DNA from: a virus
IMG/VR virus record: IMGVR_UViG_3300014050_000003
Location: 57,059-121,058 of that record
Reading direction: 5' to 3' (one strand)
DNA length: 64,000 nt
The position numbers and the translations under genes were made by a program. Of the stretch, positions 33,676 through 59,638 are shown piece by piece; the first letter of the stretch is position 1, and the number at the start of each line of letters is the position of its first letter. A model generated the notes under the pieces. It was given only the letters and a program-made list of their open reading frames with translations, made no database searches and was not told the DNA's origin.

Positions 33676-35067
33676 TTAAGGAACTACTAGACCTGGCCCA
33701 GATCCATATACTGGATTATTGGTAGTATCATTCTTATTATAAGGATTTAAAAATCCAGTTAAACCAACAACAGAAATTCTTTGAGCATTTGGTGCGTAAG
33801 TAATATCGCCAAATCCAATATATTTTGAAATTCCCTCAAGATAACCAATCGATCCACCCCCTCCACCCGCTCCTCCACTACCACCCCCTTTTGATGCATC
33901 TTCACCTTTATCGCCACCGCCTCCGCCTCCTCCTCTGCCTCCCCCTTGTCCTGGACTTCCTGGAATATTAACATATGGTCCTGGATCCAAGGGTCCTTTT
34001 TGTCCAGCTGATCCACCCCTAGCATCAGAATATGGTCGAGTTTCACCCTTAACTCCTCCATTTCCTGGAGCTAAGCCTGGATTAGGCGCAGGACCTCTAG
34101 GACCTTGGCTTCCTCCTATAGAAATTCCTCCAAATCCATCAGATCCTTTGTCAGAAAACCCCCCCTGTCCGTTGCCTCCATCAATTCCTTTAACAGTTTG
34201 GCCTTCTATACCATTAAATCCAATTATTGTAGATGGACTTCCACTTGATCCACCGCCACCATCAGATCCTCTTTCACTAATACCATCTCCATTTGACCCA
34301 TCCACGCCTTTTAATGTTATTCCATCAATTCCATTAGTTCCCCCGTCTCCTTTAAGAAGAGCCCCATCTGGTCCTGATGGCCCATCACCAATATACATAG
34401 GACCATCAATACCTATGTTTCCAGCTGATCCAAAAGCTGTTGGTCCTCCTATGCCTATTGAACCTCCACCTCCGCCTCCTCCTCCACCACCTGCTCCACC
34501 TTCACCCCCACCCCCACCTTCAAATCCAATTTCTCCTTGACCACAACATTTTAAAATGATTTCTTTTGTTGATAATATTTTTATACAAGTTTGTTCTGTT
34601 TCATTTGGATTAAATTTTATGCATCTAAATTTAGCTTCTTTTTCATTTGGTATATCTGATGTATCTATAGATATATTTTTTGTACGAGAATTTAAAAAGT
34701 TTATATTACTTTTATTTGTATCAATATACAAATTTATTTCATTAAATACTTTTTTATCAGTATTTAATAAATCACCAATTTTAAAATTTCCAGATTGATT
34801 AGAAGTATTTAAATTAATAGAAAATTGATGTTCTTTACTGCTTGTTTTTTGAAGAAAATAATTATTTTCATAATCAGTAAATATTTTTGTATTAAAATAT
34901 CCATCTATTCCAGTTTGTATTGGAAAACTAGAATTAAAATTTATTTGTTTTACTGAGCATCCATCTATTGTTTTATTTATATATAAAGCATTTAATTCAG
35001 AACCACTTACATACTTATCCCAACATACATTTCCAAGATCTTGAATTTGCTTTAAAACATTTGGCAT
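33676..35067 (-). CDS. Glycine-rich virion fibre-like protein
   Basis: Poly-Gly and GxDG repeats; N-terminal ~170 aa paralogous to the neighbouring collagen gene. Confidence 0.7.
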   Translation of the reverse strand: MPNVLKQIQDLGNVCWDKYVSGSELNALYINKTIDGCSVKQINFNSSFPIQTGIDGYFNTKIFTDYENNYFLQKTSSKEHQFSINLNTSNQSGNFKIGDLLNTDKKVFNEINLYIDTNKSNINFLNSRTKNISIDTSDIPNEKEAKFRCIKFNPNETEQTCIKILSTKEIILKCCGQGEIGFEGGGGGEGGAGGGGGGGGGGSIGIGGPTAFGSAGNIGIDGPMYIGDGPSGPDGALLKGDGGTNGIDGITLKGVDGSNGDGISERGSDGGGGSSGSPSTIIGFNGIEGQTVKGIDGGNGQGGFSDKGSDGFGGISIGGSQGPRGPAPNPGLAPGNGGVKGETRPYSDARGGSAGQKGPLDPGPYVNIPGSPGQGGGRGGGGGGGDKGEDASKGGGSGGAGGGGGSIGYLEGISKYIGFGDITYAPNAQRISVVGLTGFLNPYNKNDTTNNPVYGSGPGLVVP

Positions 35068-36462
35068 TTATTGTACTCCTTGTACTCCTGCAAATATATA
35101 AATATATCTCATTTGTCCTCCTATGCAAACATACATTCTTCTAGGTCTAAATAAAATTCCTCCATAAGTAAAACTACCCCCAATTATATATCCAGTTGCT
35201 CCAGTCGCTCCAGTAGATCCAGTGGCTCCAGCTCCAGTTGCACCAGTAGATCCAGTTGCACCAGTAGCGCCTTTTGGCCCAGTTGCTCCAGTCGCTCCAG
35301 TTGCGCCAGTACTCCCTTGTATAGTTAGCGTATCTCCTTTCGCTCCAGTCGCTCCAGTAGCTCCAGTTGCACCAGTAGATCCAGTCGCACCAGTAGAACC
35401 AGTAGAACCTATTATTAAAGGTCCCATTGGCCCAGTTAATCCAGTTGCACCAGTAGATCCAGTTGCACCAGTAGATCCAGTCGCACCAGTAGATCCAGTT
35501 GAACCCGTAGCTCCTCTTGATCCAGTCGCTCCAGTTGCACCAGTAGATCCAGTTGAACCCGTAGCTCCTCTTGATCCAGTCGCTCCAGTTGCACCAGTAG
35601 ATCCAGTTGAACCCGTAGCTCCTCTTGATCCAGTCGCTCCAGTTGCACCAGTAGATCCAGTGGCTCCTTTTGATCCAGTAGCTCCAGTTGCACCAGTAGC
35701 TCCAGTTGCACCAGTAGATCCAGTTGATCCAGTTGAACCCGTAGCGCCTTTTGGTCCAGTTGCACCAGTAGATCCAGTAGCTCCAGTTGCACCAGTAGCT
35801 CCACTTGATCCAGTTGCGCCAGTTGAGCCAGTAGCTCCAGATCCAGTTGCTCCAGTCGCTCCGACTGGACCTGTAGCGCCAGTAGCTCCAATTGCTCCAG
35901 TAGCTCCCCTTGGTCCAGTTGCACCAGTGGCACCAAAACAATCAGAATTTGCTGGTGCTCCTACCGCTTCAAATAAACTACTTATTTCAGCGCTTACTGG
36001 ATTAAAATTATTATTAGCATTTCCAACAGTAAATGGTTTTGTGCACATTACATAAGGTGGATCTGAAGTACCATCATTAATTTCTCTAAATTTTGCTTCA
36101 TTTTCAGCAGAACTTAAATCATTTGTATTTATTGAAATTGTTTTAGTATTTTTATTTATTAAAATATAAGACCCATTTTGTTCTGTTAATATTTGAATTC
36201 CTTGGTCATTTGAATTTAAAAGTTCAAAGTATGATGCTTGTGCGTCTGTTCCTAGTCCTGCAGTATAATTTGATGTATTTAATGATGCAAAATTTGTACC
36301 TGAATCTGTGTATAATTGTATACTATTGGGACTATTTTTATATTGTAATTCCAATAAATTCACTGGGCATGTAGTTGTTCCTAAATTTAAAACATTTCCA
36401 TTTTGTTGGTAATTCGCCCAACATTCATTACTAAGATCTTGGATAAATTTTATTATAGCCAT
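35068..36462 (-). CDS. Collagen-like (Gly-X-Thr) fibre protein
   Basis: About 250 aa of (G-A/S-T)n triplets between globular ends. Confidence 0.88.
35483..35661. repeat. Perfect 54-bp tandem repeat (about 3.3 copies) inside the collagen gene
   Basis: Unit gcaccagtagatccagttgaacccgtagctcctcttgatccagtcgctccagtt at 35483, 35537 and 35591, partial at 35645. Confidence 0.9.
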
Positions 36463-40731: not shown

Positions 40732-43700
40732 TTAAGGTATTAATATTATAATATTTTCTGGAACAATTGCATTTATTCCAGTAGATATTACAGGTATTTT
40801 GATTCCAGTTACTAAATTATTAATTAAATTTTTACCAGTAATATATAAATTTCCAGACATAGCATAATTATCATAAAAATTTCTTTTTTCTATAAATATA
40901 TTTACTTTATTTATATTTGATGGTAAATAAGATCCAGAAGTATATTTTCCATTAGTTATATAATTTCCACTTTGGAAGTTTATATTTCCAGTAGGAATTA
41001 AATTACCAGAAGAATCTGTGTAAGAATATCCAGTTATAATATTAAATGTTCCAGTAAATGTTTTTTCATAAGTTATATCTGTTAATCCATTTAATATAAG
41101 GCTATAATTTCCACTTGCAATTCCAGTGGCAATTATTGAATCTATATATTCTCCAGTATATGTTGTTCCATCAATATTTGTAATAAAATTATCTTCATAA
41201 TATAAAATTCCATTTTCAGCAAATCCAGAAATTTGTCCAGTTATATTTGAAAAATAAAAATTATCTGAAACTAAAGTAGTTTTAGAATTGACTAAGTCTC
41301 CTATTAAATATATATTTCCAGTAGAATTTAATGAGTTGGTAAATCCAAAACTATAATTACCTGTAAATTCATTTACCTTTTCCCAATTATTATTACTAGT
41401 ATATACCCAAGTTTTACCAATTAAATCTGTATTTATTAAATTTGCCCCGCCGATTATTATTTTATTCCCATTTGAATTTATTCCAACAGAATTACCAAAT
41501 TTATATGTTCTACCATCTCCGCTAAATGTTTTTGATATATTCCAATCATTTCCATTTCCAGTAAATAAAAATGCTAAACCAGAGTAATGATTACTCCAAG
41601 GGGCTCCTACAATTATTGAATTACCATTACTATTTATATCTATTGAAAAACCAAATCCACTAGTTAAATTTTCTTGATAAATTTTTTTACACTTTCCCCA
41701 ATTATTATTATTACCAGTAATAATATATGCTGATCCATAATTTTCATAAGGTTGAGAAGCAACAATAACGTTTCCAGAATCATTAACAGCTATTGAATAG
41801 CCAAATTGCGTTTTCATATCCTGATCACCAGAAATTTTTTGTTTTAAATCATAATCTATATTATTTCCAGTAAATATATAAATTGCTCCATCAAATTCGC
41901 GCTCTCGGATGCTTCCAATAACTCCTACGTCTCCATTTTTATTAAAAGCAACGCTATTTCCAAAAAGCGGAGTATTCAAAACGATATTTAATTCACTACC
42001 AGTAATTCTTTGATAATCCCAATTTCCATTATTTAAATTATAAATATAAGCTGCTCCACTACCAGAGTCTGCGTAAGGCGCTCCAATTAAAAATTTATTT
42101 CCAGAAGCATTAGATGCTACAGAATATCCGAAACGATCACCACTAAATTCTCCAGATAATTCAGCAATTTGATTCCAATTGTTATTAGAACTATTAAAGA
42201 TATAAACTAATCCACTATTAGATAATGAATTTGGTGCACCAATAATCGCAAGATCTCCTTTAGCATTTAAACCTAAAGCTCGTCCAAAATTTATACCACT
42301 ATCATAACCGCTTACTGTCTGACTAAAAAATGTTCCACCAGAAGCTTGAACATTAATTTCATTTACAACAAAACCATTTAAATAAACAAATTGATTTACA
42401 TCAGAATATATTTCTCCAGTTACAATACTATTATTTAGTAAATTTATACCACTTCCTGTTACAAAAAATGTTTTAGATAAATATCCTGATCCACTTATAA
42501 AGCCAGTTAATGTTGTGTTAATTCCAGTATTTATATTTATTTCTTCTGTAAAAAGCCCTGTATATCCAGAAGCATATTCAAAAAGAAATGATAAATTTTT
42601 ATCTATAGAATATGAGCCAGTTTCATTTCCAAAAACAAAATCAACTCCTAAAACATAAAAATCAGTATTTACTTGTCCAGGTTGAGTAAAAAATGTTTCT
42701 GAATTTTTATTTATATTAAAATCATATATATAACCAGTTGTAAAATATTGGCTATTTAATTCAAATACTCCAGAAATTTTGCCAAAATTCGTATATAAAC
42801 CAAAAATAAAATTACCAGTTTTGTCTAAATATAATTGTTTTGTAGTATCTAAATCTGGAGTTACTACTATAGTATATTTTTGATTAGAAATATCTTGATT
42901 AGATGGAATTACATTTATATTAAAATTTGAATTCAAAGGATAAATTATTTCGCCGCTATAAATTTTAAATTTTAAATTTGGATCTCCACTTACAAAACCA
43001 GTAATATTTTCTTTTACATAATAAAAATTATTAAAATCTAATTTATAACTTGGCCTATCTCCATTTATATAAAGCTCTGTAGAAGCTATACATCCAGATG
43101 TATTTAAATAAAATGTATCAAATTTTGCATAATTTTTTGAACTTGTATTAGATAAATAATAATCATTAATATAATAATCATATCCACTAGAATTTATATT
43201 TCCAGATAATTTAATATTTTCATTTGCATTATAAGTATAAATTAATTTATTTGTTGGATCAAATATTTTACCATTTGTAAATTGAAAATTAAGATCATGT
43301 CGTTTTTTTATAATAGCTTGATTTGAAATTGTATAATTTTTATTAGTTAAACTTTTTATAGCTACAATAGCTCCAGGATAAATTATAGCATTATTCTGAG
43401 ACCCTATTTCTCCATCTGTAGTCCATTCGATTGGACTAACTTGCCCATTAAAACCATCATCATAAACATAATATGATATGAAACCAAATCCATTGTTTAT
43501 AAGTAATACATCAGCGTAAGGCTCACTATTATTGGCTTGAAATTCCCCACTATTAAAAACTGTATTTATAGTATTAACGGATCCTCCTTCATAAATATAA
43601 AAATTATCATAATAAAAAGTATTATTAACAGAATGAGGATATATTTTAGTAAGTGGGCCTTCTTTAAATCCCAAATTACATTTTCCATCTATATTATTTA

Positions 43701-43773
43701 AAGAAAGATCAACTAAAAAAGATATTCCAGTTTGTTCACTAATTGATAAAGTATTATTTCCAGAAAGATTCAT
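40732..43773 (-). CDS. Virion structural protein with an inserted 7-blade FG-GAP beta-propeller
   Basis: Seven FG-x-S/A-x-x-x-N-x-x-G...GAP-type repeats at about 41295-42295 inside a TG/SG-rich scaffold. Confidence 0.75.
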   Translation of the reverse strand: MNLSGNNTLSISEQTGISFLVDLSLNNIDGKCNLGFKEGPLTKIYPHSVNNTFYYDNFYIYEGGSVNTINTVFNSGEFQANNSEPYADVLLINNGFGFISYYVYDDGFNGQVSPIEWTTDGEIGSQNNAIIYPGAIVAIKSLTNKNYTISNQAIIKKRHDLNFQFTNGKIFDPTNKLIYTYNANENIKLSGNINSSGYDYYINDYYLSNTSSKNYAKFDTFYLNTSGCIASTELYINGDRPSYKLDFNNFYYVKENITGFVSGDPNLKFKIYSGEIIYPLNSNFNINVIPSNQDISNQKYTIVVTPDLDTTKQLYLDKTGNFIFGLYTNFGKISGVFELNSQYFTTGYIYDFNINKNSETFFTQPGQVNTDFYVLGVDFVFGNETGSYSIDKNLSFLFEYASGYTGLFTEEININTGINTTLTGFISGSGYLSKTFFVTGSGINLLNNSIVTGEIYSDVNQFVYLNGFVVNEINVQASGGTFFSQTVSGYDSGINFGRALGLNAKGDLAIIGAPNSLSNSGLVYIFNSSNNNWNQIAELSGEFSGDRFGYSVASNASGNKFLIGAPYADSGSGAAYIYNLNNGNWDYQRITGSELNIVLNTPLFGNSVAFNKNGDVGVIGSIREREFDGAIYIFTGNNIDYDLKQKISGDQDMKTQFGYSIAVNDSGNVIVASQPYENYGSAYIITGNNNNWGKCKKIYQENLTSGFGFSIDINSNGNSIIVGAPWSNHYSGLAFLFTGNGNDWNISKTFSGDGRTYKFGNSVGINSNGNKIIIGGANLINTDLIGKTWVYTSNNNWEKVNEFTGNYSFGFTNSLNSTGNIYLIGDLVNSKTTLVSDNFYFSNITGQISGFAENGILYYEDNFITNIDGTTYTGEYIDSIIATGIASGNYSLILNGLTDITYEKTFTGTFNIITGYSYTDSSGNLIPTGNINFQSGNYITNGKYTSGSYLPSNINKVNIFIEKRNFYDNYAMSGNLYITGKNLINNLVTGIKIPVISTGINAIVPENIIILIP

Positions 43774-51998: not shown

Positions 51999-54900
51999 TT
52001 ATTTTTTAGTTGGTGGTAGTCTTTGACCTCCTACGCTAACAATTCTTTCATTAAAGCTACTTGTTAAGTCTTTTATTTGATTTTCTAAATCTGTTTTTAA
52101 TGTGCTCAATGAGTTTTCTATTTCTTTTGTTATATTTTCTTTAATATTATCTATAGATTCACTATTAACAGTAAATTCAATTGGTCCATTTGATTGATTG
52201 ATCTCTACGCCAATATTACCTTTAAGAGATAGATCTGTATTTTTAATTTCTATTTGAGACATTCCAGCAGTTAAATTATTTAATGCTTGAGATGTATTTT
52301 GGAAATTTACTCCTGGCTGATTTGGTAAACCGCTAGTTTGGTTTGGCCTTGTTAATCCATTACTAAATGCGCTAAAATTAGCATTAATAGAAGCAACATT
52401 TTTACTAATATCTAAAATTGCTCTTTGACTTTGAATCGCTTCTTCTACTTGAGTTCTAGCTATTTCACCTGATCTTGCTCCAATTTTATTGTATTCTCCA
52501 GCTAAACCATATTCTCCTTGAGATCTTAATAATCTAGCTATTGCTGACGTTTGAAATTCTATATCTTTAGCTCTTCCAGATATTGCTCTTTCTTTTAAAG
52601 ATCCAAGATTCATTCCTTCTAAACTTCCTCCAAACATTTTTACTGTATCTAGTAATGTACCCGCTGAAGCTCTGCCACCAACTGGAGTTCTTAAACCTTG
52701 AATATTAGTAATTAAAGAATCTATTGTACTATTTGATTGAGGATTAATATAAGATTCTAAACCTCCAAAAGATCTAATATCTTTTTGTTTTTGTATTGAG
52801 GCTGCTTGAATTTGATTGTTGATTCTTGTTAATTCTGTTTGTTTAATTTGTTGAGCATTTAAATCTAATAAGGCTCTTTGATTATCTGCTAAAATATTAT
52901 TCGCTTGAGTTTGAAGATCTATAGCTTTACTTCCGTATGCAGTTCCTCCAAAAAATTGATTAAATGAATTAGTTATTTCTTGACCAATTTGATCTGCTGA
53001 TTTGCCGCTTGTTGCAAGCTGACCTAAAACTGTTTGAAATTGATTTAATTTTTGTACATCTACTTTTGGAGTCTGACCAGGGACATTTTCTTTCTTAAGA
53101 TCTAAAAATGTTTTATAACCTTCTTGTAAAACATCAGATCGAGCTTTTGTTTCTTGATCTTTATATTTTTGAGCAAATTCTAATTGTTGTTTAGCCGTTT
53201 CAATTAAATTTTGATATTCTCTTGCGCTTTGAGGACCCATAGAGCTACGATTATATTCTAATAATCCACTTGCTCTTTGAAGTTGAATATCTTCAGTATT
53301 AAAGGCTAATTTATCTTTGTATTCTTGTTGAATATCGCCGATTTGAATTAATCTTTGATAAAAATTATCTAATGCATCTTGCCTAGCTTTTTCTAAATCA
53401 AGCGTTCTTTGTTTTTCTGCATTATCTTTGTTTATTAATTCAACTTCTTTCGCTCTTTCATCTGCTAATTTTTTAGCTTCTTCTCCACCGATTACTTCCT
53501 CTAATAATTTAGTTAAAATACTTTGTATTAATTGTTGAGCTGCTTGTTCGCCTTTAGGTCCGCCTTGCTCAGATAGTCTACGTATAGATTCTATAGCGTC
53601 TTGCCTAAATCCTAAAGATTTTAAATCTTTTTCGCTATATGAAGCATTTTTTGCTGTTTTAAATAAATCCATTCCTCCAGTAGAAAGCATTTGTTTTAAT
53701 TTTTCTTTAGCGTCTGAACTTTCAAAACCTTTTTGAGCAAAAACTTTTGCATATCTTTCTTGTTCACCAAAGCTTAAAGGCGATCCAGTTATTCCTCCTC
53801 CAATGGATTCTCTTGGATTTGTTAATGGTTTAAATGAAAGAGATTCAAAAAATCTAGCAAATTCATTTCCAGTTCTTTTATTTAATATATCTTCAAATCC
53901 AGCGGCACCTTTGTAATAAGATTCTTCATTAGCTAAATCTGATTGTATTTTAGACATTTGATCAAGCAAATCTGTATAATTAGTTATAGATACAAGTTGT
54001 TTTCTATAAGCTTCTGGAATTTGTTGAGCAGCATTCACTAAATCTTGATTTAATTTTCCTATAGTATCTGGTGAAGTTTTTGGATCTTTATGTGCTTCTT
54101 CTAATTTTTGTAATATATCAGCATATTTTTGAGAACTATTTCCAAAATCAGTTAATGTTTGGCCAGATTCTTCGGCTTTTTCTGCTAATTTTGTAGATTT
54201 TTCTTTTAATAAATTACCTATCGTTCCAAATGTTCCAGTAATAGCAAGAACTTCTGCTGATAAAATTCCAAATTTACCAGGTATTACTTGGGCCGCTGTC
54301 CCTGCTAAAGTTAAAGTAGAACTAAATCCCTCTATTGCTGCTGATAATTTTGGAGAATTTTTGGTTGCTTCTTGTAATAATCCACTAGCTAAAGACAATC
54401 CTATAGAAGCTTGTATTAATCCTCCTTTATATTTTTGAACTGATTGTGGAAGAGCATTGTCATCAAATATTACTTTAACTTTAGAAATAGAAGTTCCTAA
54501 TGCGCTCATTTTTGCTATTAAAGTATTCGCTTGTTGCGCCATTGTTGCTAGAGGTACATAGATTCCTTGAGCATTCATATATTTAAGTGGTGAGACTGCA
54601 GCTGCTGCAGCAAAATTTGGTATATAACCACCATATGCTCCAGCTTTTCTCGCTGCAGATCTAGAACCATATCTATTAATTCCTTGATTTAATCCATTAG
54701 GCTCATCTTTTGTATTATATACTCCAAGACCTAAAGGATTGCTATTTGAAGCTAAATCTGAAGAAGCTCCGATTCTAATTGAAGAAGCGGGAACACCAGA
54801 AGAAATTTCTCTCCCTATGGCTTCTTTTAATCCAGAAAAATTAGGAATAAATCCTTTTGCCGAGTATTGAGCTGGTATATTTTTAATTCCAGCTAATTGG

Positions 54901-57836
54901 GCTAATTCAAATCTATGATTTCCATCTTTTACTTCAGAATATAATTCTGGATATTGTTTAATTAATATCGGTTGTTTTTTTAAAAATTCATAAAGTTTTT
55001 TCTTATTTTCTTTAGAAGAAAAAAGTTTAGTTAAATTTTCTTTAGTTATAGGTCCAGAATAAGGAATTCCCATTAAAGACATTAAGCTTGATAAACCTTG
55101 AGCAGTTGATTTATTTGATCTTCCAATAAAGCCTCCCCTTTCAATATGTTTATTTGGATTAAATACAGCGAAATTAGGAATAAATCCATCATGAGCAAGA
55201 TCCTGTTCTCTAAATGTTATCGGTTTCGAATCTCCTTTTGATTTTATAACTCCATATGGTAGTTTTACTATTTTTTCATTTTTTTCGACAGCTTTAATTA
55301 AAGCTTGTTTTAATGCTGGAGTATTTTTTATTTTGCCTCTTATACTCTCAAGCGTATCTCTACTACCAGCATTTAATTTAGCGTCAAGATAAGGAAGTAC
55401 TTGCATAGCGGCTAATTGTCCACCAAATAAGGATTGATTTACTTGATCATTAACAAAATTAGTTCCATTATAATCCCAAGTGCCACTCCCACCGCCCTTC
55501 TTTTTATTTAAATCTAATTTAATAGCTGCATTTATAGAAGATTCAAATAGTCTTCCCATAATTTGAGGATAGGCAGAAGTATCAGCCTGTAATTGTTTAA
55601 CGATTGTATCTGCAGAAGGTAATTTTTTTGTATTTGGTTTAATTAATGTTACGGCAATTCTTTGAATTGCTTTTGCTAATTCTCTACCTGCTATTTCATC
55701 GAAATCACTATTGCCTATATTTAATATAGAAAAATCTTGTCCTATTGCTTGAATTATTTTTTTACCTCTTTTATTTTCTGATTCTGGTTTTTTTCTACTT
55801 TCTTGCAATTGAGAATAATAAAGTCTTTGCTCTTCATTGGGTTGAAATTTTTTTCCTAAAGGCAAATTAATACTACCTCCTCTAGCTAATGTTGCAATTT
55901 GTGCACCTTTTAAATTTGTCATAGCTCCTGCTGGAGGAATTAAATTAGCAAAATTAGGAACATAACCGCTCCATGCATAGGGATTAAATCCGTGAGCTTT
56001 TTCAAAACTTTGTTTATAATTTTTTCCAGCTTGACTACCTTGAGGAGGCATAATAGCTGGTTGATTAAATCCATTAAATTTTTTTACTTTTTCTGCGCTA
56101 TTATAAGTTACCATTCCATAATTAGGAATAAAAGTTTGTTTTACTTTTCCTGGCATATAACCACCAGCCAATGCTCCTGCGATTTCTTGACTAGCGCTAA
56201 AATTTGGAATAAATCCAGCTGATTTAGTTGGAATTCCTCTCATTGGTCCAGTTTGAGAAACTCTAACTCCAGAAGAAATCAAACTTTTTGATAAAGCATT
56301 TGCAACCGCAACTTGTCTTTGCATAGCAGCAGTTTCTTGTTCAATTAAAGTTAAAATTTGTTTATGTAAACTTGCAGTATTTATATTTCCACTATTAATT
56401 TGTTCAATAATTTGAGGATTTCTACCAATTAAATTTAAAATTTGTGTTTGTAGCGCCTGTTGTTCTGCGGCTTTAGCATTTAGACCTGTTAAACTTTTGA
56501 ATGCGTCTGCGGAGAATGTTACTAATCTTTCAAAAATTTTAAATAAAGCTGAAGCTGCTAATAATACTCCAGGGCCTCCTAAAAAAGTTCCTATTCCTTT
56601 TAAAAGACCTTGACCAATTCTTGATCCAATATCTTCACTTTCTGGTTGAAAACTTTCTAAAGCAGTATTTAATCCACCTAATAAATTTTTAAGAGTTGGA
56701 GCAATTGCTATATTACCTGCTTGAGCTGCTAATTTTTGTAAATTTGCTAAAGTTTTATTAATTGTTGCACTTAATGTTTGATTTAATTCTTCATTTCTAG
56801 TATTAGCTTCATTTGTTGCGCCATTAGAAGTTTCTAAAGCTCTAGAATATATAGAGTATTGATTTCCTAAATCTGCTAAAGAAGCTTTTAATACGTTAAT
56901 TTGGAATACGCCTCCAACTAATTCTGCGACTTGAGCTCTTTGTGTTCCAGATAATTTACTATATGTACTAGATAAACTATTTAGAATAGTAATTAATGGT
57001 AAAATATTACCTTGCTGATCTTTTGTAGCAACACCGATTGCTTCTAATGCATCTAAAGTATCAGTTCTTTGTAGTCTTGTAAAAATTGTTTTAAATGAGT
57101 TACCAATTACGGCTCCGCCTCTAGCTGTAGTTTGCTGAGCAGAAGTAACTAACGCAATAAGTTGATCTAAACTTACTCCTGCGTCTTGCGCTGAACTACC
57201 AACTCTTCTTACTGCTTCCGCTAAGTCTGCGGAACTTACCGCAAATCCAGCGTCAACAGCTGCTAATTTATTTATTAATTCATTTGATGTTATACTAGTT
57301 TTATTAAATGAATTTAACGCAGCAGTAATAGATTCAACGCTATCGACAACTCCCATTCCAGTTAATCTAGTTAAAACTAATGCATCGCTAGTTCTTTTTA
57401 GAGTATCTTCTATACCTAAGCCTTGTCTAGAAAATTCTGTTGCAGCTGAAGCAACTTCAGAAAAACTTTGTCCAGTATTTTTAGCTATATCAAATAAACT
57501 ATTGCCAAAAGAAGCTAAACTTTTTGAACTAGCATTTAATATAACATTAATGTCTGTAAGAGATTTTTCAACATCTATGACGCTTTTAATTGTTTCCGAA
57601 AAAGCTTTTTGTACAGCAAAAATTGCACCTGCTGAAGCACCGAATGCAATAACACGAGCATTAGATGCAGCTAATGATTTTTCAAATTCGCCTAATTGAC
57701 CATTAATTTTACCTAATGGTTGAGAAAATCCTTTACTATTTAAAACTAAAGCAGTATTAGCGACTTTTTCAATCTGCTTTTCTAGGGGCCTAGTATTCCC
57801 CAGTACATCAATAATGATATTATCACCTTGCGCCAT
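51999..57836 (-). CDS. Tail tape measure protein with an internal multi-domain cassette
   Basis: N-terminal TP901-type core (LFDIAKNTGQSFSEVASAATEFSRQGLG...GNSFKTIFTRL), hydrophobic segments, long coiled-coil C-terminus, five G[FY][IV]PNF repeats. Confidence 0.92.
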   Translation of the reverse strand: MAQGDNIIIDVLGNTRPLEKQIEKVANTALVLNSKGFSQPLGKINGQLGEFEKSLAASNARVIAFGASAGAIFAVQKAFSETIKSVIDVEKSLTDINVILNASSKSLASFGNSLFDIAKNTGQSFSEVASAATEFSRQGLGIEDTLKRTSDALVLTRLTGMGVVDSVESITAALNSFNKTSITSNELINKLAAVDAGFAVSSADLAEAVRRVGSSAQDAGVSLDQLIALVTSAQQTTARGGAVIGNSFKTIFTRLQRTDTLDALEAIGVATKDQQGNILPLITILNSLSSTYSKLSGTQRAQVAELVGGVFQINVLKASLADLGNQYSIYSRALETSNGATNEANTRNEELNQTLSATINKTLANLQKLAAQAGNIAIAPTLKNLLGGLNTALESFQPESEDIGSRIGQGLLKGIGTFLGGPGVLLAASALFKIFERLVTFSADAFKSLTGLNAKAAEQQALQTQILNLIGRNPQIIEQINSGNINTASLHKQILTLIEQETAAMQRQVAVANALSKSLISSGVRVSQTGPMRGIPTKSAGFIPNFSASQEIAGALAGGYMPGKVKQTFIPNYGMVTYNSAEKVKKFNGFNQPAIMPPQGSQAGKNYKQSFEKAHGFNPYAWSGYVPNFANLIPPAGAMTNLKGAQIATLARGGSINLPLGKKFQPNEEQRLYYSQLQESRKKPESENKRGKKIIQAIGQDFSILNIGNSDFDEIAGRELAKAIQRIAVTLIKPNTKKLPSADTIVKQLQADTSAYPQIMGRLFESSINAAIKLDLNKKKGGGSGTWDYNGTNFVNDQVNQSLFGGQLAAMQVLPYLDAKLNAGSRDTLESIRGKIKNTPALKQALIKAVEKNEKIVKLPYGVIKSKGDSKPITFREQDLAHDGFIPNFAVFNPNKHIERGGFIGRSNKSTAQGLSSLMSLMGIPYSGPITKENLTKLFSSKENKKKLYEFLKKQPILIKQYPELYSEVKDGNHRFELAQLAGIKNIPAQYSAKGFIPNFSGLKEAIGREISSGVPASSIRIGASSDLASNSNPLGLGVYNTKDEPNGLNQGINRYGSRSAARKAGAYGGYIPNFAAAAAVSPLKYMNAQGIYVPLATMAQQANTLIAKMSALGTSISKVKVIFDDNALPQSVQKYKGGLIQASIGLSLASGLLQEATKNSPKLSAAIEGFSSTLTLAGTAAQVIPGKFGILSAEVLAITGTFGTIGNLLKEKSTKLAEKAEESGQTLTDFGNSSQKYADILQKLEEAHKDPKTSPDTIGKLNQDLVNAAQQIPEAYRKQLVSITNYTDLLDQMSKIQSDLANEESYYKGAAGFEDILNKRTGNEFARFFESLSFKPLTNPRESIGGGITGSPLSFGEQERYAKVFAQKGFESSDAKEKLKQMLSTGGMDLFKTAKNASYSEKDLKSLGFRQDAIESIRRLSEQGGPKGEQAAQQLIQSILTKLLEEVIGGEEAKKLADERAKEVELINKDNAEKQRTLDLEKARQDALDNFYQRLIQIGDIQQEYKDKLAFNTEDIQLQRASGLLEYNRSSMGPQSAREYQNLIETAKQQLEFAQKYKDQETKARSDVLQEGYKTFLDLKKENVPGQTPKVDVQKLNQFQTVLGQLATSGKSADQIGQEITNSFNQFFGGTAYGSKAIDLQTQANNILADNQRALLDLNAQQIKQTELTRINNQIQAASIQKQKDIRSFGGLESYINPQSNSTIDSLITNIQGLRTPVGGRASAGTLLDTVKMFGGSLEGMNLGSLKERAISGRAKDIEFQTSAIARLLRSQGEYGLAGEYNKIGARSGEIARTQVEEAIQSQRAILDISKNVASINANFSAFSNGLTRPNQTSGLPNQPGVNFQNTSQALNNLTAGMSQIEIKNTDLSLKGNIGVEINQSNGPIEFTVNSESIDNIKENITKEIENSLSTLKTDLENQIKDLTSSFNERIVSVGGQRLPPTKK
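54612..56216 (-). repeat. Five dispersed G[FY][IV]PNF peptide repeats in the tape measure
   Basis: GFIPNF 56199-56216, GYVPNF 55950-55967, GFIPNF 55170-55187, GFIPNF 54837-54854, GYIPNF 54612-54629. Confidence 0.9.
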
Positions 57837-57878: not shown

Positions 57879-58883
57879 TTATTTAACGCCGTGTATTTTT
57901 AGTATTTCTTCAAAAGAGAGATTTCCACCCTTTTTATCTGCTTCTTTAACTAAATCAATAACTTCATCTTTTGAATCTAACATGCCTTTAAGCTCTTCTT
58001 TTGTTGCTCCAATATAAGTTTTACCTAAAAATTCTTTTCCAGAGTCTTTTTCTTTTTCTTTAGTTACTAAAGACCTATTTTCATACCATTCGACTAATTC
58101 ATCCAAAGAATTAATAGAAGATGGCGGAGAATCTCCTGTTCTTTCTAAATTATATTTATATCCTCTAGCTAATGTAAAAAGATTAATCTGATTATAAGTT
58201 AATTTAGACAAAGGTTTACCAAAAAATGTATAAGGATTATTTTCTGATAAGAAAAACATATTCATAAAAAAACTTGATACAGCTGTTTTTTTAAGATTTT
58301 TAACAGAAAATAAACTATTAAAATTTTGATATAAACTTGCGTATTTGATTAAATCTTCTACTTCTAAATTAAAAAAATCATCTTCTGAATCAAAATATTT
58401 ATCAAAATTTTCATTTTTACAAAATGTTAAGTATATAAGATATTCATTTGATTTTCTTGTAGAGTATTCTTCTGCAGTTATTCCTAAAAGTTCGACTCGA
58501 TCTTTTTCTATAGAAAGAAGCTCTTCTTCTAAAACTTTTATTTTATTATCTATTTCTTTCTGCTGAGATGCAATAATTAATTTTTTCTTGGTATCTATAT
58601 TAAGATTAATTTCATCTCTAATTTTAATTCTTCTATTTTCTTTTTCTTTTGACCAAATATTTTTTTCGTGCAATAAATCTAATTTGTCTTTTTCTTCTAA
58701 GATTCCCATGCTTTTTGATTTATCAAAAAATTCAATATACTTTTCATAAACATTAGCCAAATCGACTTCTGTTACGTGTTTTAAATAAAATATTTTATCT
58801 TCTAATTTATATATAGAATATTCGTTAATTATATCTTTATAAAGTTTTTTAACAAAATTGATATCTTTAAGTATTTCATTCAC
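57879..58883 (-). CDS. Hypothetical protein, probable tail assembly chaperone
   Basis: Helical, charged protein directly upstream of the tape measure. Confidence 0.5.
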   Translation of the reverse strand: MNEILKDINFVKKLYKDIINEYSIYKLEDKIFYLKHVTEVDLANVYEKYIEFFDKSKSMGILEEKDKLDLLHEKNIWSKEKENRRIKIRDEINLNIDTKKKLIIASQQKEIDNKIKVLEEELLSIEKDRVELLGITAEEYSTRKSNEYLIYLTFCKNENFDKYFDSEDDFFNLEVEDLIKYASLYQNFNSLFSVKNLKKTAVSSFFMNMFFLSENNPYTFFGKPLSKLTYNQINLFTLARGYKYNLERTGDSPPSSINSLDELVEWYENRSLVTKEKEKDSGKEFLGKTYIGATKEELKGMLDSKDEVIDLVKEADKKGGNLSFEEILKIHGVK

Positions 58884-58885
58884 TT

Positions 58886-59638
58886 TTATGAATCAAAAAA
58901 TTCTTCTAAAGATTTAAATTCTTCTTCTGTTGAGGCTTTACCCATATACCATAAACTAATAAAATAAGCTAATTTTCTAATACCACCACTTAGCACATCA
59001 TCTCCTTGATCTTCAATTAAATCATAAGCTGTTAATTTATTTTCAAATGTTAAACCTTTAAATATTGGAGAAAATGTTATTTTATTATCATAAGAAACAT
59101 ATGATAAATTAAGAACCCACCATAATATAACTTGGTTTCTTGCTCTATTTTCTGCTGTTTGATCAAATACGCTTGATTGTTGTAATTCTAAATTAGCTAG
59201 ATCTTTTTTAATGTTAAGTATTTCATTTAACAAATCTTTCATTTTTGCTTCTTGTTCTTCTTTTTCAAGTTTAGTTAAATTGGCTTGAAGTTTTTCTAAT
59301 TCGGTTTGCTTTACATATAACGTAACATATAGAGTTGCATATCTTTGTTTTTCAGATTCACTTAAAGCTCCGCCGTCATCTTGATATCTTTTAGCTATCA
59401 ATGATTTAGTAAGTAACCCAAGCCTAATTCCTTCTGACACTTTAACGCCATAAAAAAGTTCCGCCTCTTCAAAAGTTTTTCTATCTGGACGAAGAATTCT
59501 AAAATAAACTGGAGATTTTTCTTTAACTTTTTTAAGTATTTTTACTTCTTCGCCTTTATCATTTTTTGAAATTTCTGGAACTTCTTTTTCTGTTTCATTT
59601 TCTATTGAGAATTCGTAAATATATTTATCTGTTTTCAT
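58886..59638 (-). CDS. Hypothetical protein, probable tail assembly chaperone
   Basis: Coiled-coil protein between tube and tape measure; shares a G[IL]L...coiled coil...TAE layout with the downstream gene. Confidence 0.5.
   Translation of the reverse strand: MKTDKYIYEFSIENETEKEVPEISKNDKGEEVKILKKVKEKSPVYFRILRPDRKTFEEAELFYGVKVSEGIRLGLLTKSLIAKRYQDDGGALSESEKQRYATLYVTLYVKQTELEKLQANLTKLEKEEQEAKMKDLLNEILNIKKDLANLELQQSSVFDQTAENRARNQVILWWVLNLSYVSYDNKITFSPIFKGLTFENKLTAYDLIEDQGDDVLSGGIRKLAYFISLWYMGKASTEEEFKSLEEFFDS

Follow-up and report, generated by a model that had tools for sequence, protein, structure and literature searches.

A phage tape measure protein carrying an array of exchangeable modules joined by one six-residue peptide

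The window analysed here is a stretch of 64,000 nucleotides (nt) from a 121,058-bp IMG/VR virus record (IMGVR_UViG_3300014050_000003, positions 57,059 to 121,058), which is estimated to be 77% complete. Our subject is a minus-strand gene for a tape measure protein (TMP) of 1945 residues and, within it, a run of modules separated by copies of the motif G[FY][IV]PNF. Residues 118-305 of the product match Pfam family PF10145 (PhageMin_Tail) with an E value of 8.8e-28 and a score of 98 bits, where the gathering score is 33.2, and the first ~500 residues have matches to 13 PHROG tape-measure families (best E value 4.8e-44); from these matches the open reading frame (ORF) is assigned as a TP901-type TMP. 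Kyte-Doolittle windows of 19 residues exceed 1.5 only where they start at residues 414 and 417. The insert that holds the modules, residues 541-1075 (535 residues), is richer in proline (6.0% vs 2.3%) and in aromatic residues (9.0% vs 5.2%) than the remaining TMP. The features of the gene, in the order of the protein, are as follows.

51999..57836, minus strand: TMP gene, 1945 residues (ORF, PF10145, 13 PHROG tape-measure families)
56922..57485, minus strand: PF10145 (PhageMin_Tail) core, residues 118-305 (Pfam)
56529..56597, minus strand: sole strongly hydrophobic stretch of the TMP, residues ~414-436, upstream of the array (Kyte-Doolittle)
56199..56216, minus strand: junction motif 1, GFIPNF, residues 541-546 (modelled as coil, predicted local distance difference test score, pLDDT, <50)
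55968..56198, minus strand: module A1, residues 547-623, conserved opening module (best-conserved stretch in the phmmer search)
55950..55967, minus strand: junction motif 2, GYVPNF, residues 624-629 (pattern, alignment, model)
55188..55949, minus strand: module B, residues 630-883, conserved core module (alignments; families F1 and F5 homologous)
55170..55187, minus strand: junction motif 3, GFIPNF, residues 884-889 (left DNA breakpoint of the cassette exchange)
54855..55169, minus strand: accessory cassette, residues 890-994, predicted ParB/sulfiredoxin (Srx) fold, with DGNHR at residues 971-975 (54912-54926)
54837..54854, minus strand: junction motif 4, GFIPNF, residues 995-1000 (right DNA breakpoint of the cassette exchange)
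54630..54836, minus strand: module A2, residues 1001-1069, conserved closing module (last in 200 of 254 arrays)
54612..54629, minus strand: junction motif 5, GYIPNF, residues 1070-1075 (pattern, alignment, model)

The five motif copies begin at residues 541, 624, 884, 995 and 1070. They are spaced 83, 260, 111 and 75 residues from start to start, leaving 77, 254, 105 and 69 residues between motifs. The positions, spacings and preceding residues (KSA, AWS, AHD, SAK, AYG) given in the original prediction, which was made from this stretch alone, agree exactly with the translation. With the genome's own residue frequencies, 2.8e-4 copies would be expected by chance per 1945 residues, and a six-frame scan of the 121,058-bp genome placed all five hits inside the TMP ORF and none elsewhere; chance or low complexity is thereby ruled out as the source of the motif.

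Relatives of the insert are numerous. A word-seeded search with residues 520-1100 scored 8000 proteins, of which 1188 had E<=1e-3. An exhaustive phmmer search of 1.84 billion cluster representatives (50% identity) found 953 clusters with E<=1e-3, of which 163 reach E<=1e-30; the longest protein has 5354 residues. In IMG/VR, 446 loci are related to this TMP, and the GTDB species genomes contain seven related loci, every one a contig of a metagenome-assembled genome and none from an isolate. A high-scoring segment pair to the TMP of Lactococcus phage 949 extends into A1; the first 2209 residues of that TMP contain no motif. The 262 relatives examined below are the best 120 proteins of the word search and the best 150 of the phmmer search, minus overlaps and the TMP described here. 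At least two motif copies occur in all 121 proteins of the word-search set and, with a looser pattern, in 254 of the 262 relatives; a single relative has none. The consensus among relatives is A-[S/A]-x-G-[F/L/Y]-[I/V]-P-N-[F/Y]-[A/S]. When one position at a time was relaxed, proline was retained at 1254 of 1257 sites, asparagine at 1254 of 1298 and glycine at 1254 of 1294, counts that overstate independence because the sequences are kin and the other positions are fixed by the pattern. Two alignments made without a pattern agree with this. In one, of 42 TMPs with 32-76% identity, the glycine, proline and asparagine of four junctions never vary; in the other, of 58 B modules with only 15-35% identity, they are invariant at either end of the module. 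Module A1 of the present TMP contains a sixth, degenerate copy, TFIPNY (residues 568-573, window 56118-56135); this form makes up 26 of the 1,080 loose motif occurrences tallied across the 262 relatives.

Asparagine peptide lyases are found in the coat proteins of nodaviruses and tetraviruses and in FlhB/YscU. By the same chemistry the invariant asparagine of the motif might cyclise and the chain break after Pro-Asn, with no protease needed. The near-constancy of asparagine and proline fits such self-cleavage, as do the location of the motif in exposed linkers and the failure to recognise a protease among the ORFs neighbouring the TMP. A strict requirement for asparagine is, however, contradicted by the relatives, in which serine replaces it at 30 of the 1298 sites and other residues at 14. 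The serine forms (GFIPSF, GYIPSF) occur at true junctions (residue 540 of P0039, its first junction, and residue 890 of P0045) and, in locus L013 (6001-6348), on both sides of a ParB-like cassette. Nor do the unrelated modules that flank the junctions have a conserved catalytic partner common to all of them. Given serine at 30 sites, Asn-dependent self-cleavage is unlikely, and we allow it only a slim chance.

A further variant of the motif, with R, K or G in place of asparagine, was seen in 10 of the 262 related TMPs (P0136, P0144, P0152, P0168, P0170, P0183, P0202, P0217, P0247 and P0257). It lies in a glycine-rich stretch at a long distance from the array, 47-452 residues from the C-terminus, in a setting that resembles that of the cut in phage T5 described below; the TMP of this window has no such variant.

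At the DNA level, all 298 motif copies in 80 related loci lie inside the TMP ORF. Across 81 related ORFs (G+C content 32-47%), 299 copies comprise 112 distinct 18-mers, the commonest of which accounts for 50. The five copies of the present gene are likewise five distinct 18-mers, though only 1-5 bases apart, which bears out the earlier remark that codons differ between copies. Codon usage within the motif matches the rest of the gene for asparagine and the last phenylalanine and departs modestly from it for the first phenylalanine and the isoleucine, while CCT (66% vs 32%) and GGA (63% vs 49%) are over-used. The 112 18-mers and the mostly near-background codons argue that selection acts mainly on the peptide. 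If, instead, an 18-base recombination site were being kept and the peptide had no role of its own, one could explain why exchange breakpoints fall inside motif DNA (see below), why this DNA is nearly fixed in AT-rich genomes, with one 18-mer so common, and why CCT is over-used. The number of distinct 18-mers and the near-background codons for F, I, N and F speak against this, as do the invariance of G, P and N where the surrounding protein drops to 15-35% identity and the confinement of the motif to the TMP reading frame, and we regard a purely DNA-level role as very improbable. The motif DNA of these AT-rich genomes is alike enough for exchange by microhomology.

When the 262 proteins were cut at the motif, 812 segments were obtained, which BLAST sorts into about 171 families; some of the families prove to belong together in profile searches. 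The commonest array consists of A1 (about 77 residues), B (about 255) and A2 (about 69), in that order, and is found in 117 proteins if those with an additional, degenerate motif copy within A1 are counted. Of 254 arrays, 174 begin with A1 and 200 end with A2, and B is present in 181 of the 262 proteins. Other modules of at least 40 residues, from 142 families, occur in 78 proteins. The number of motifs per TMP ranges from 2 to 16 and that of modules per array from 1 to 15, with the maximum in the protein of 5354 residues, and module order is variable, families F8 and F10 being found in both orders. Pfam searches of two very long relatives, P0123 (4493 residues) and P0228 (4959 residues), gave PF10145 and one sub-threshold match only. 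One large phage protein thus holds many unrelated domains in variable order, as polyvalent-type proteins do. The prediction had been that homologous TMPs would differ in motif number and inner content but keep their outer modules, and this is the pattern found.

Pairwise comparisons place the exchanges at the motifs. The relative P0005 is 84% identical to the present TMP over residues 1-890 and 81% over residues 994-1945, and lacks exactly residues 890-994. In P0022, P0023, P0025 and P0030 the segment corresponding to residues 884-1001 is 85-88% identical, compared with 50-56% for the N-terminal 630 residues, and the ParB-like cassette sits between A1 and B, whereas in the present TMP it sits between B and A2. 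P0026, P0027 and P0029 are 92-94% identical over residues 1-633 and 74-75% over residues 995-1945, and the B module between is not alignable. The DNA comparison was made with locus L097, whose architecture is A1, ParB-like, B, A2. Successive blocks of 30 nt have 10, 10, 25, 24, 28, 27, 25, 27, 30, 27, 30, 29, 26, 22, 12 and 3 matches, and the switches in identity fall inside the two motifs that flank the cassette. Judged from these alignments, a 351-nt cassette has been transferred laterally and recently between divergent TMP genes, into another junction. Insertions, deletions and replacements end exactly at motifs in both the protein and the DNA comparisons, as the proposal of a domain-swap junction requires, and a cassette array with domain swapping at the motif is strongly supported. 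The available text of Smug et al. 2023 (PMC10684548) describes a mosaic signal in TMPs for which a genuine recent case was not confirmable; the motif-to-motif transfer seen here looks like such a case.

Structure prediction gave a consistent view of the insert. The AlphaFold2 model of residues 530-1090, built from an alignment of 41 whole TMPs, has a mean pLDDT of 67.8 and a predicted template modelling score (pTM) of 0.31, a low value of the kind that would be expected for beads on a string. All models discussed here are of monomers, apart from one complex prediction. The insert is modelled as alpha/beta domains and not as one coiled coil, in keeping with its earlier description. All five motifs are modelled as coil, in or beside segments with pLDDT <50 (model residues 1-16, 94-109, 355-379, 444-470 and 544-561), and in the ParB-like module modelled alone the motif-bearing ends are likewise the least confident parts. 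Confident domains joined by weak linkers that contain the motifs indicate that the segments fold independently, as had been anticipated, and that the motif is a short linear linker element belonging to none of the domains. A complex prediction for A1 and A2, in which the two would form a clasp closing the array, scored 0.00, 0.43 and 0.03 in its runs against a mark of 0.32, and gave no verdict.

The model of A1 consists of a helix, four strands and a helix (pLDDT 85-92) and that of A2 of a helix, two strands and two helices (pLDDT 75-87). The suggestion that these outer modules resemble each other was not supported by comparison: the Smith-Waterman z score is 0.9, 89 of 500 shuffles score as high, the profile-profile probability is 0.1%, and the helix-strands-helix layout is the only common trait of the two models. 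Neither A1 nor A2 has detectable similarity to anything known. In module B, G761, E765, D788 and K820 are 100% conserved among 166 distinct sequences, K835 99% and D818 85%. The order E ... D ... (D)xK, formed by E765, D788, D818 and K820, resembles a PD-(D/E)xK pattern, and its residues are again invariant in 58 sequences derived from the related loci. Mean pLDDT over blocks of 10 residues is mostly about 70-88 in the ordered parts of B, with weak loops between; around D818 and K820, where the model of B is at its weakest, the whole-insert model has pLDDT 42-52, and it shows no strands from D788 to K820. No structural match for B was obtained from the whole-insert model, and PDB profile searches with whole TMPs returned coiled-coil noise only. 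The alignments indicate that B is a conserved core module replaced by divergent alleles, not free cargo.

Modelled alone from eight sequences, the 105-residue accessory module reaches a pLDDT of 89.2 and a pTM of 0.81, and the top 10 structural matches to the model are all ParB/Srx proteins; Foldseek again returned the ParB/Srx family, with weak E values from 0.027. The DGNHR motif is invariant in 8 of 8 aligned homologues, with a helix modelled from module residue 90. At the level of the model, the ParB/Srx fold of the module is confirmed. Sequence profiles were less informative: Pfam ParB_N (PF02195) scored 12.8 bits against a threshold of 26.3 (E 0.12), and a PDB profile search found SbnI only, at E 0.52. 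Of the inner two modules, which the earlier statement likened to unrelated enzymes, this one has an enzyme-like fold.

Homologues of the module (36-40% identity) occur in two large ORFs that are not TMPs and that have acidic linkers and no motif. One, L095:2284-6312 (at least 1343 residues, cut by the locus end), has a match at 2.6e-53 to phrog_6651, a family of internal virion proteins, and its domain is 36% identical to the module and keeps DGNHR. The other, L094:994-6315 (at least 1774 residues, also cut by the locus end), has the same ParB/Srx-type domain between acidic linkers. Free-standing homologues of 57-184 residues were not found at the sensitivity of the word-based search. One ParB/Srx domain is thus carried by two kinds of ejected protein, and nothing else supports a role as cargo so well, if indirectly. 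The L095 ORF also contains an HExxH motif and looks like a polyvalent ejected protein. Compared with the ParB/sulfiredoxin superfamily (ParB, Noc, KorB, Srx, SbnI, the free serine kinase and Osa), with which the module has the fold and a DGxHR-type motif in common, the module is minimal, at 105 residues without DNA-binding or dimerisation domains, and lies inside a TMP.

These observations can be read in more than one way. The motif could be a docking or register element, contacting the tube lumen or the tail assembly chaperones or tying the three TMP chains together at each node, with the modules never released; on this view the modules, or A1, B and A2 at the least, would be working tail parts, involved in length setting, in the plug or in penetration of wall or membrane. 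These three keep both their sequence and their place: in 238 TMPs longer than 1700 residues the median position of the first motif is residue 541.5. A short linker peptide of hydrophobic residue, proline, asparagine and aromatic residue suits binding as well as cutting, and a binding pocket might tolerate the 30 serine replacements. According to the available text of PMC12617516, moreover, no TMP besides those of T5 and lambda has been shown to be cut. A docking role leaves unexplained some 142 unrelated accessory families, among them the ParB/Srx domain found also in an internal virion protein, and the motif is disordered in the monomer models. The data fit docking or register just as well as cutting; as a full account, with no module released, we consider this reading possible but doubtful.

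We favour, with modest confidence, the explanation that the TMP is a cassette array at the protein level, that the motif is a protein-level signal, and that the modules are carried into the host at infection. The array follows the N-terminal TP901-type core of the TMP, precedes its C-terminal helical part and comprises four autonomously folding modules, A1, B, the ParB/Srx-fold domain and A2. Each boundary is a linear peptide, [A/S]-x-G-[F/Y/L]-[I/V]-P-N-[F/Y]-[A/S], in a flexible linker, conserved at the peptide level in hundreds of highly divergent TMPs, and the 18-base motif would supply the microhomology that eases in-frame exchange of cassettes. TMPs are expelled before the DNA. Maturation of the tail involves a cut in the TMP in both T5 (pb2) and lambda (gpH), as the available texts of PMC10038345 and PMC12617516 describe. 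Because TMPs leave the tail ahead of the DNA, we infer that the modules would travel with the TMP into the host envelope or cytoplasm. As another phage has a ParB/Srx-type domain in an ejected internal virion protein, the ruler probably brings finished proteins into the host. The junction peptide would most likely be a processing site that frees the modules, as at the mapped cut of T5 pb2, or alternatively the docking or register element considered above.

The tape measure pb2 of T5 yields pb2* and pb2C by a cut that follows R1127 (Linares et al. 2023, PMC10038345, available text), and the residues just before the cut in the T5 record form an aromatic, branched-aliphatic and proline core as in the motif. 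The processing proposed for the present family resembles that of pb2, as far as the available text describes it, in that the mapped cut separates an enzymatic domain; it differs in that pb2 is cut once and has a single, fixed muralytic domain close to its C-terminus, with neither an array nor module exchange. Lambda gpH is converted to gpH* and gpHC after tail assembly; PMC12617516 states that neither the site nor the protease is known, and the processing involves no enzymatic domain. In a stronger form of the proposal the TMP would be a polyprotein, cut at every G[FYL][IV]PN[FY] during maturation or ejection and injecting free enzymes ahead of the DNA. Its cargo would be the nuclease-like B, the ParB/Srx domain and over a hundred other families, a customisable set into which recombination at the 18 bases could insert new effectors in frame, as a protein-level analogue of integron arrays. 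This stronger form we put forward only tentatively.

Several points weigh against delivery and processing as favoured here. Cleavage at the motif is proposed purely by analogy, and the likeness to T5 amounts to three residues noticed post hoc, with a basic residue where the motif has asparagine. The retention of A1, B and A2 in most relatives (174, 181 and 200) may point to tail assembly or envelope penetration rather than effectors. Three copies of 535 folded residues would presumably have to fit the lumen of the tail tube. The skew in proline and glycine codons possibly reflects some DNA-level constraint or shared descent. No relatives of the B fold were found in Pfam (with 58 members), PDB profile or ESM Atlas searches, and tblastn against 50,697 GenBank phage records gave no match to the insert at E<=1e-3 or to A1 alone at E<=10.

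Among known systems, some TMPs, such as that of mycobacteriophage TM4, have embedded peptidoglycan hydrolase motifs, that is, non-ruler domains acting at infection. Each of these TMPs has one such domain in a fixed place; there is no conserved junction peptide and no combinatorial array. Polyvalent proteins, as presented in the available text of Iyer et al. 2017 (PMC5512222), are alike in being large virion-associated proteins whose shuffled, unrelated domains are believed to pass into the host together with the DNA. They typically include ParB-like domains, and proteolytic release of the domains, by an in-built metallopeptidase, has been proposed. Their carriers, in the same text, are head-packaged or conjugation proteins without a common junction peptide, and the word 'tape' occurs 0 times. 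Here, by comparison, the carrier is a TMP, no peptidase domain was recognised, and one six-residue peptide stands at every boundary. The internal virion protein of the phrog_6651 family in L095 has a homologous ParB/Srx domain in a large ejected protein, and differs in the carrier, the acidic linkers and the lack of the motif. Searches for the motif strings in 8.1 million PubMed Central papers and 0.36 million preprints gave two unrelated matches only, and the literature searched on tape measure proteins with polyprotein, polyvalent, embedded-domain or domain-shuffling terms contained no description of such an array. Single embedded hydrolases in TMPs are known, whereas combinatorial arrays fenced by one peptide were not found described.

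The TMP ORF lies in a long minus-strand block with big downstream ORFs, fibre-like, that contain FG-GAP and collagen repeats:

33676-36462 and 40732-43773, minus strand: collagen-repeat and FG-GAP ORFs (repeats)

The collagen-repeat gene (PF01391, 3.2e-32) lies in a GC-rich stretch (0.417 vs about 0.28), and near it is the ORF of 1013 residues with FG-GAP repeats; both probably encode fibre proteins. None of the 10 neighbouring ORFs scanned around the TMP had a PHROG match, which points to a poorly charted phage lineage. Tail assembly chaperones are usually encoded just upstream of the TMP, the position occupied here by two minus-strand ORFs at 57879-58883 (334 residues) and 58886-59638 (250 residues). 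Both are acidic, helical-looking and unusually large, and have no Pfam or PHROG match. The 121,058-bp record encodes DnaB, a Pol III alpha subunit, RecA and a glycosylation gene block, and contains no tRNA genes. In the window, positions 3-33675 form a block, mostly on the plus strand, for replication and sugar metabolism, encoding DnaB, Pol III alpha, a RecA-like protein, a GDP-mannose 4,6-dehydratase, a sugar C-methyltransferase, and Fringe-like and other glycosyltransferases; its first ORF has a BppL_N baseplate motif.

TMPs are usually treated as rulers with at most one wall-degrading domain. In the family described here, which is very large and uncultured, the ruler doubles as a holder of interchangeable modules that a single conserved peptide links. 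If this peptide is a cut or docking signal, it would provide a handle on how and why TMPs are processed. Phage proteins delivered by the virion could then be picked out of metagenomes by a simple rule, proteins could be loaded into phage tails on a natural scaffold that keeps the reading frame, and more than 100 unannotated module families would become candidates for early host-takeover or anti-defence functions.

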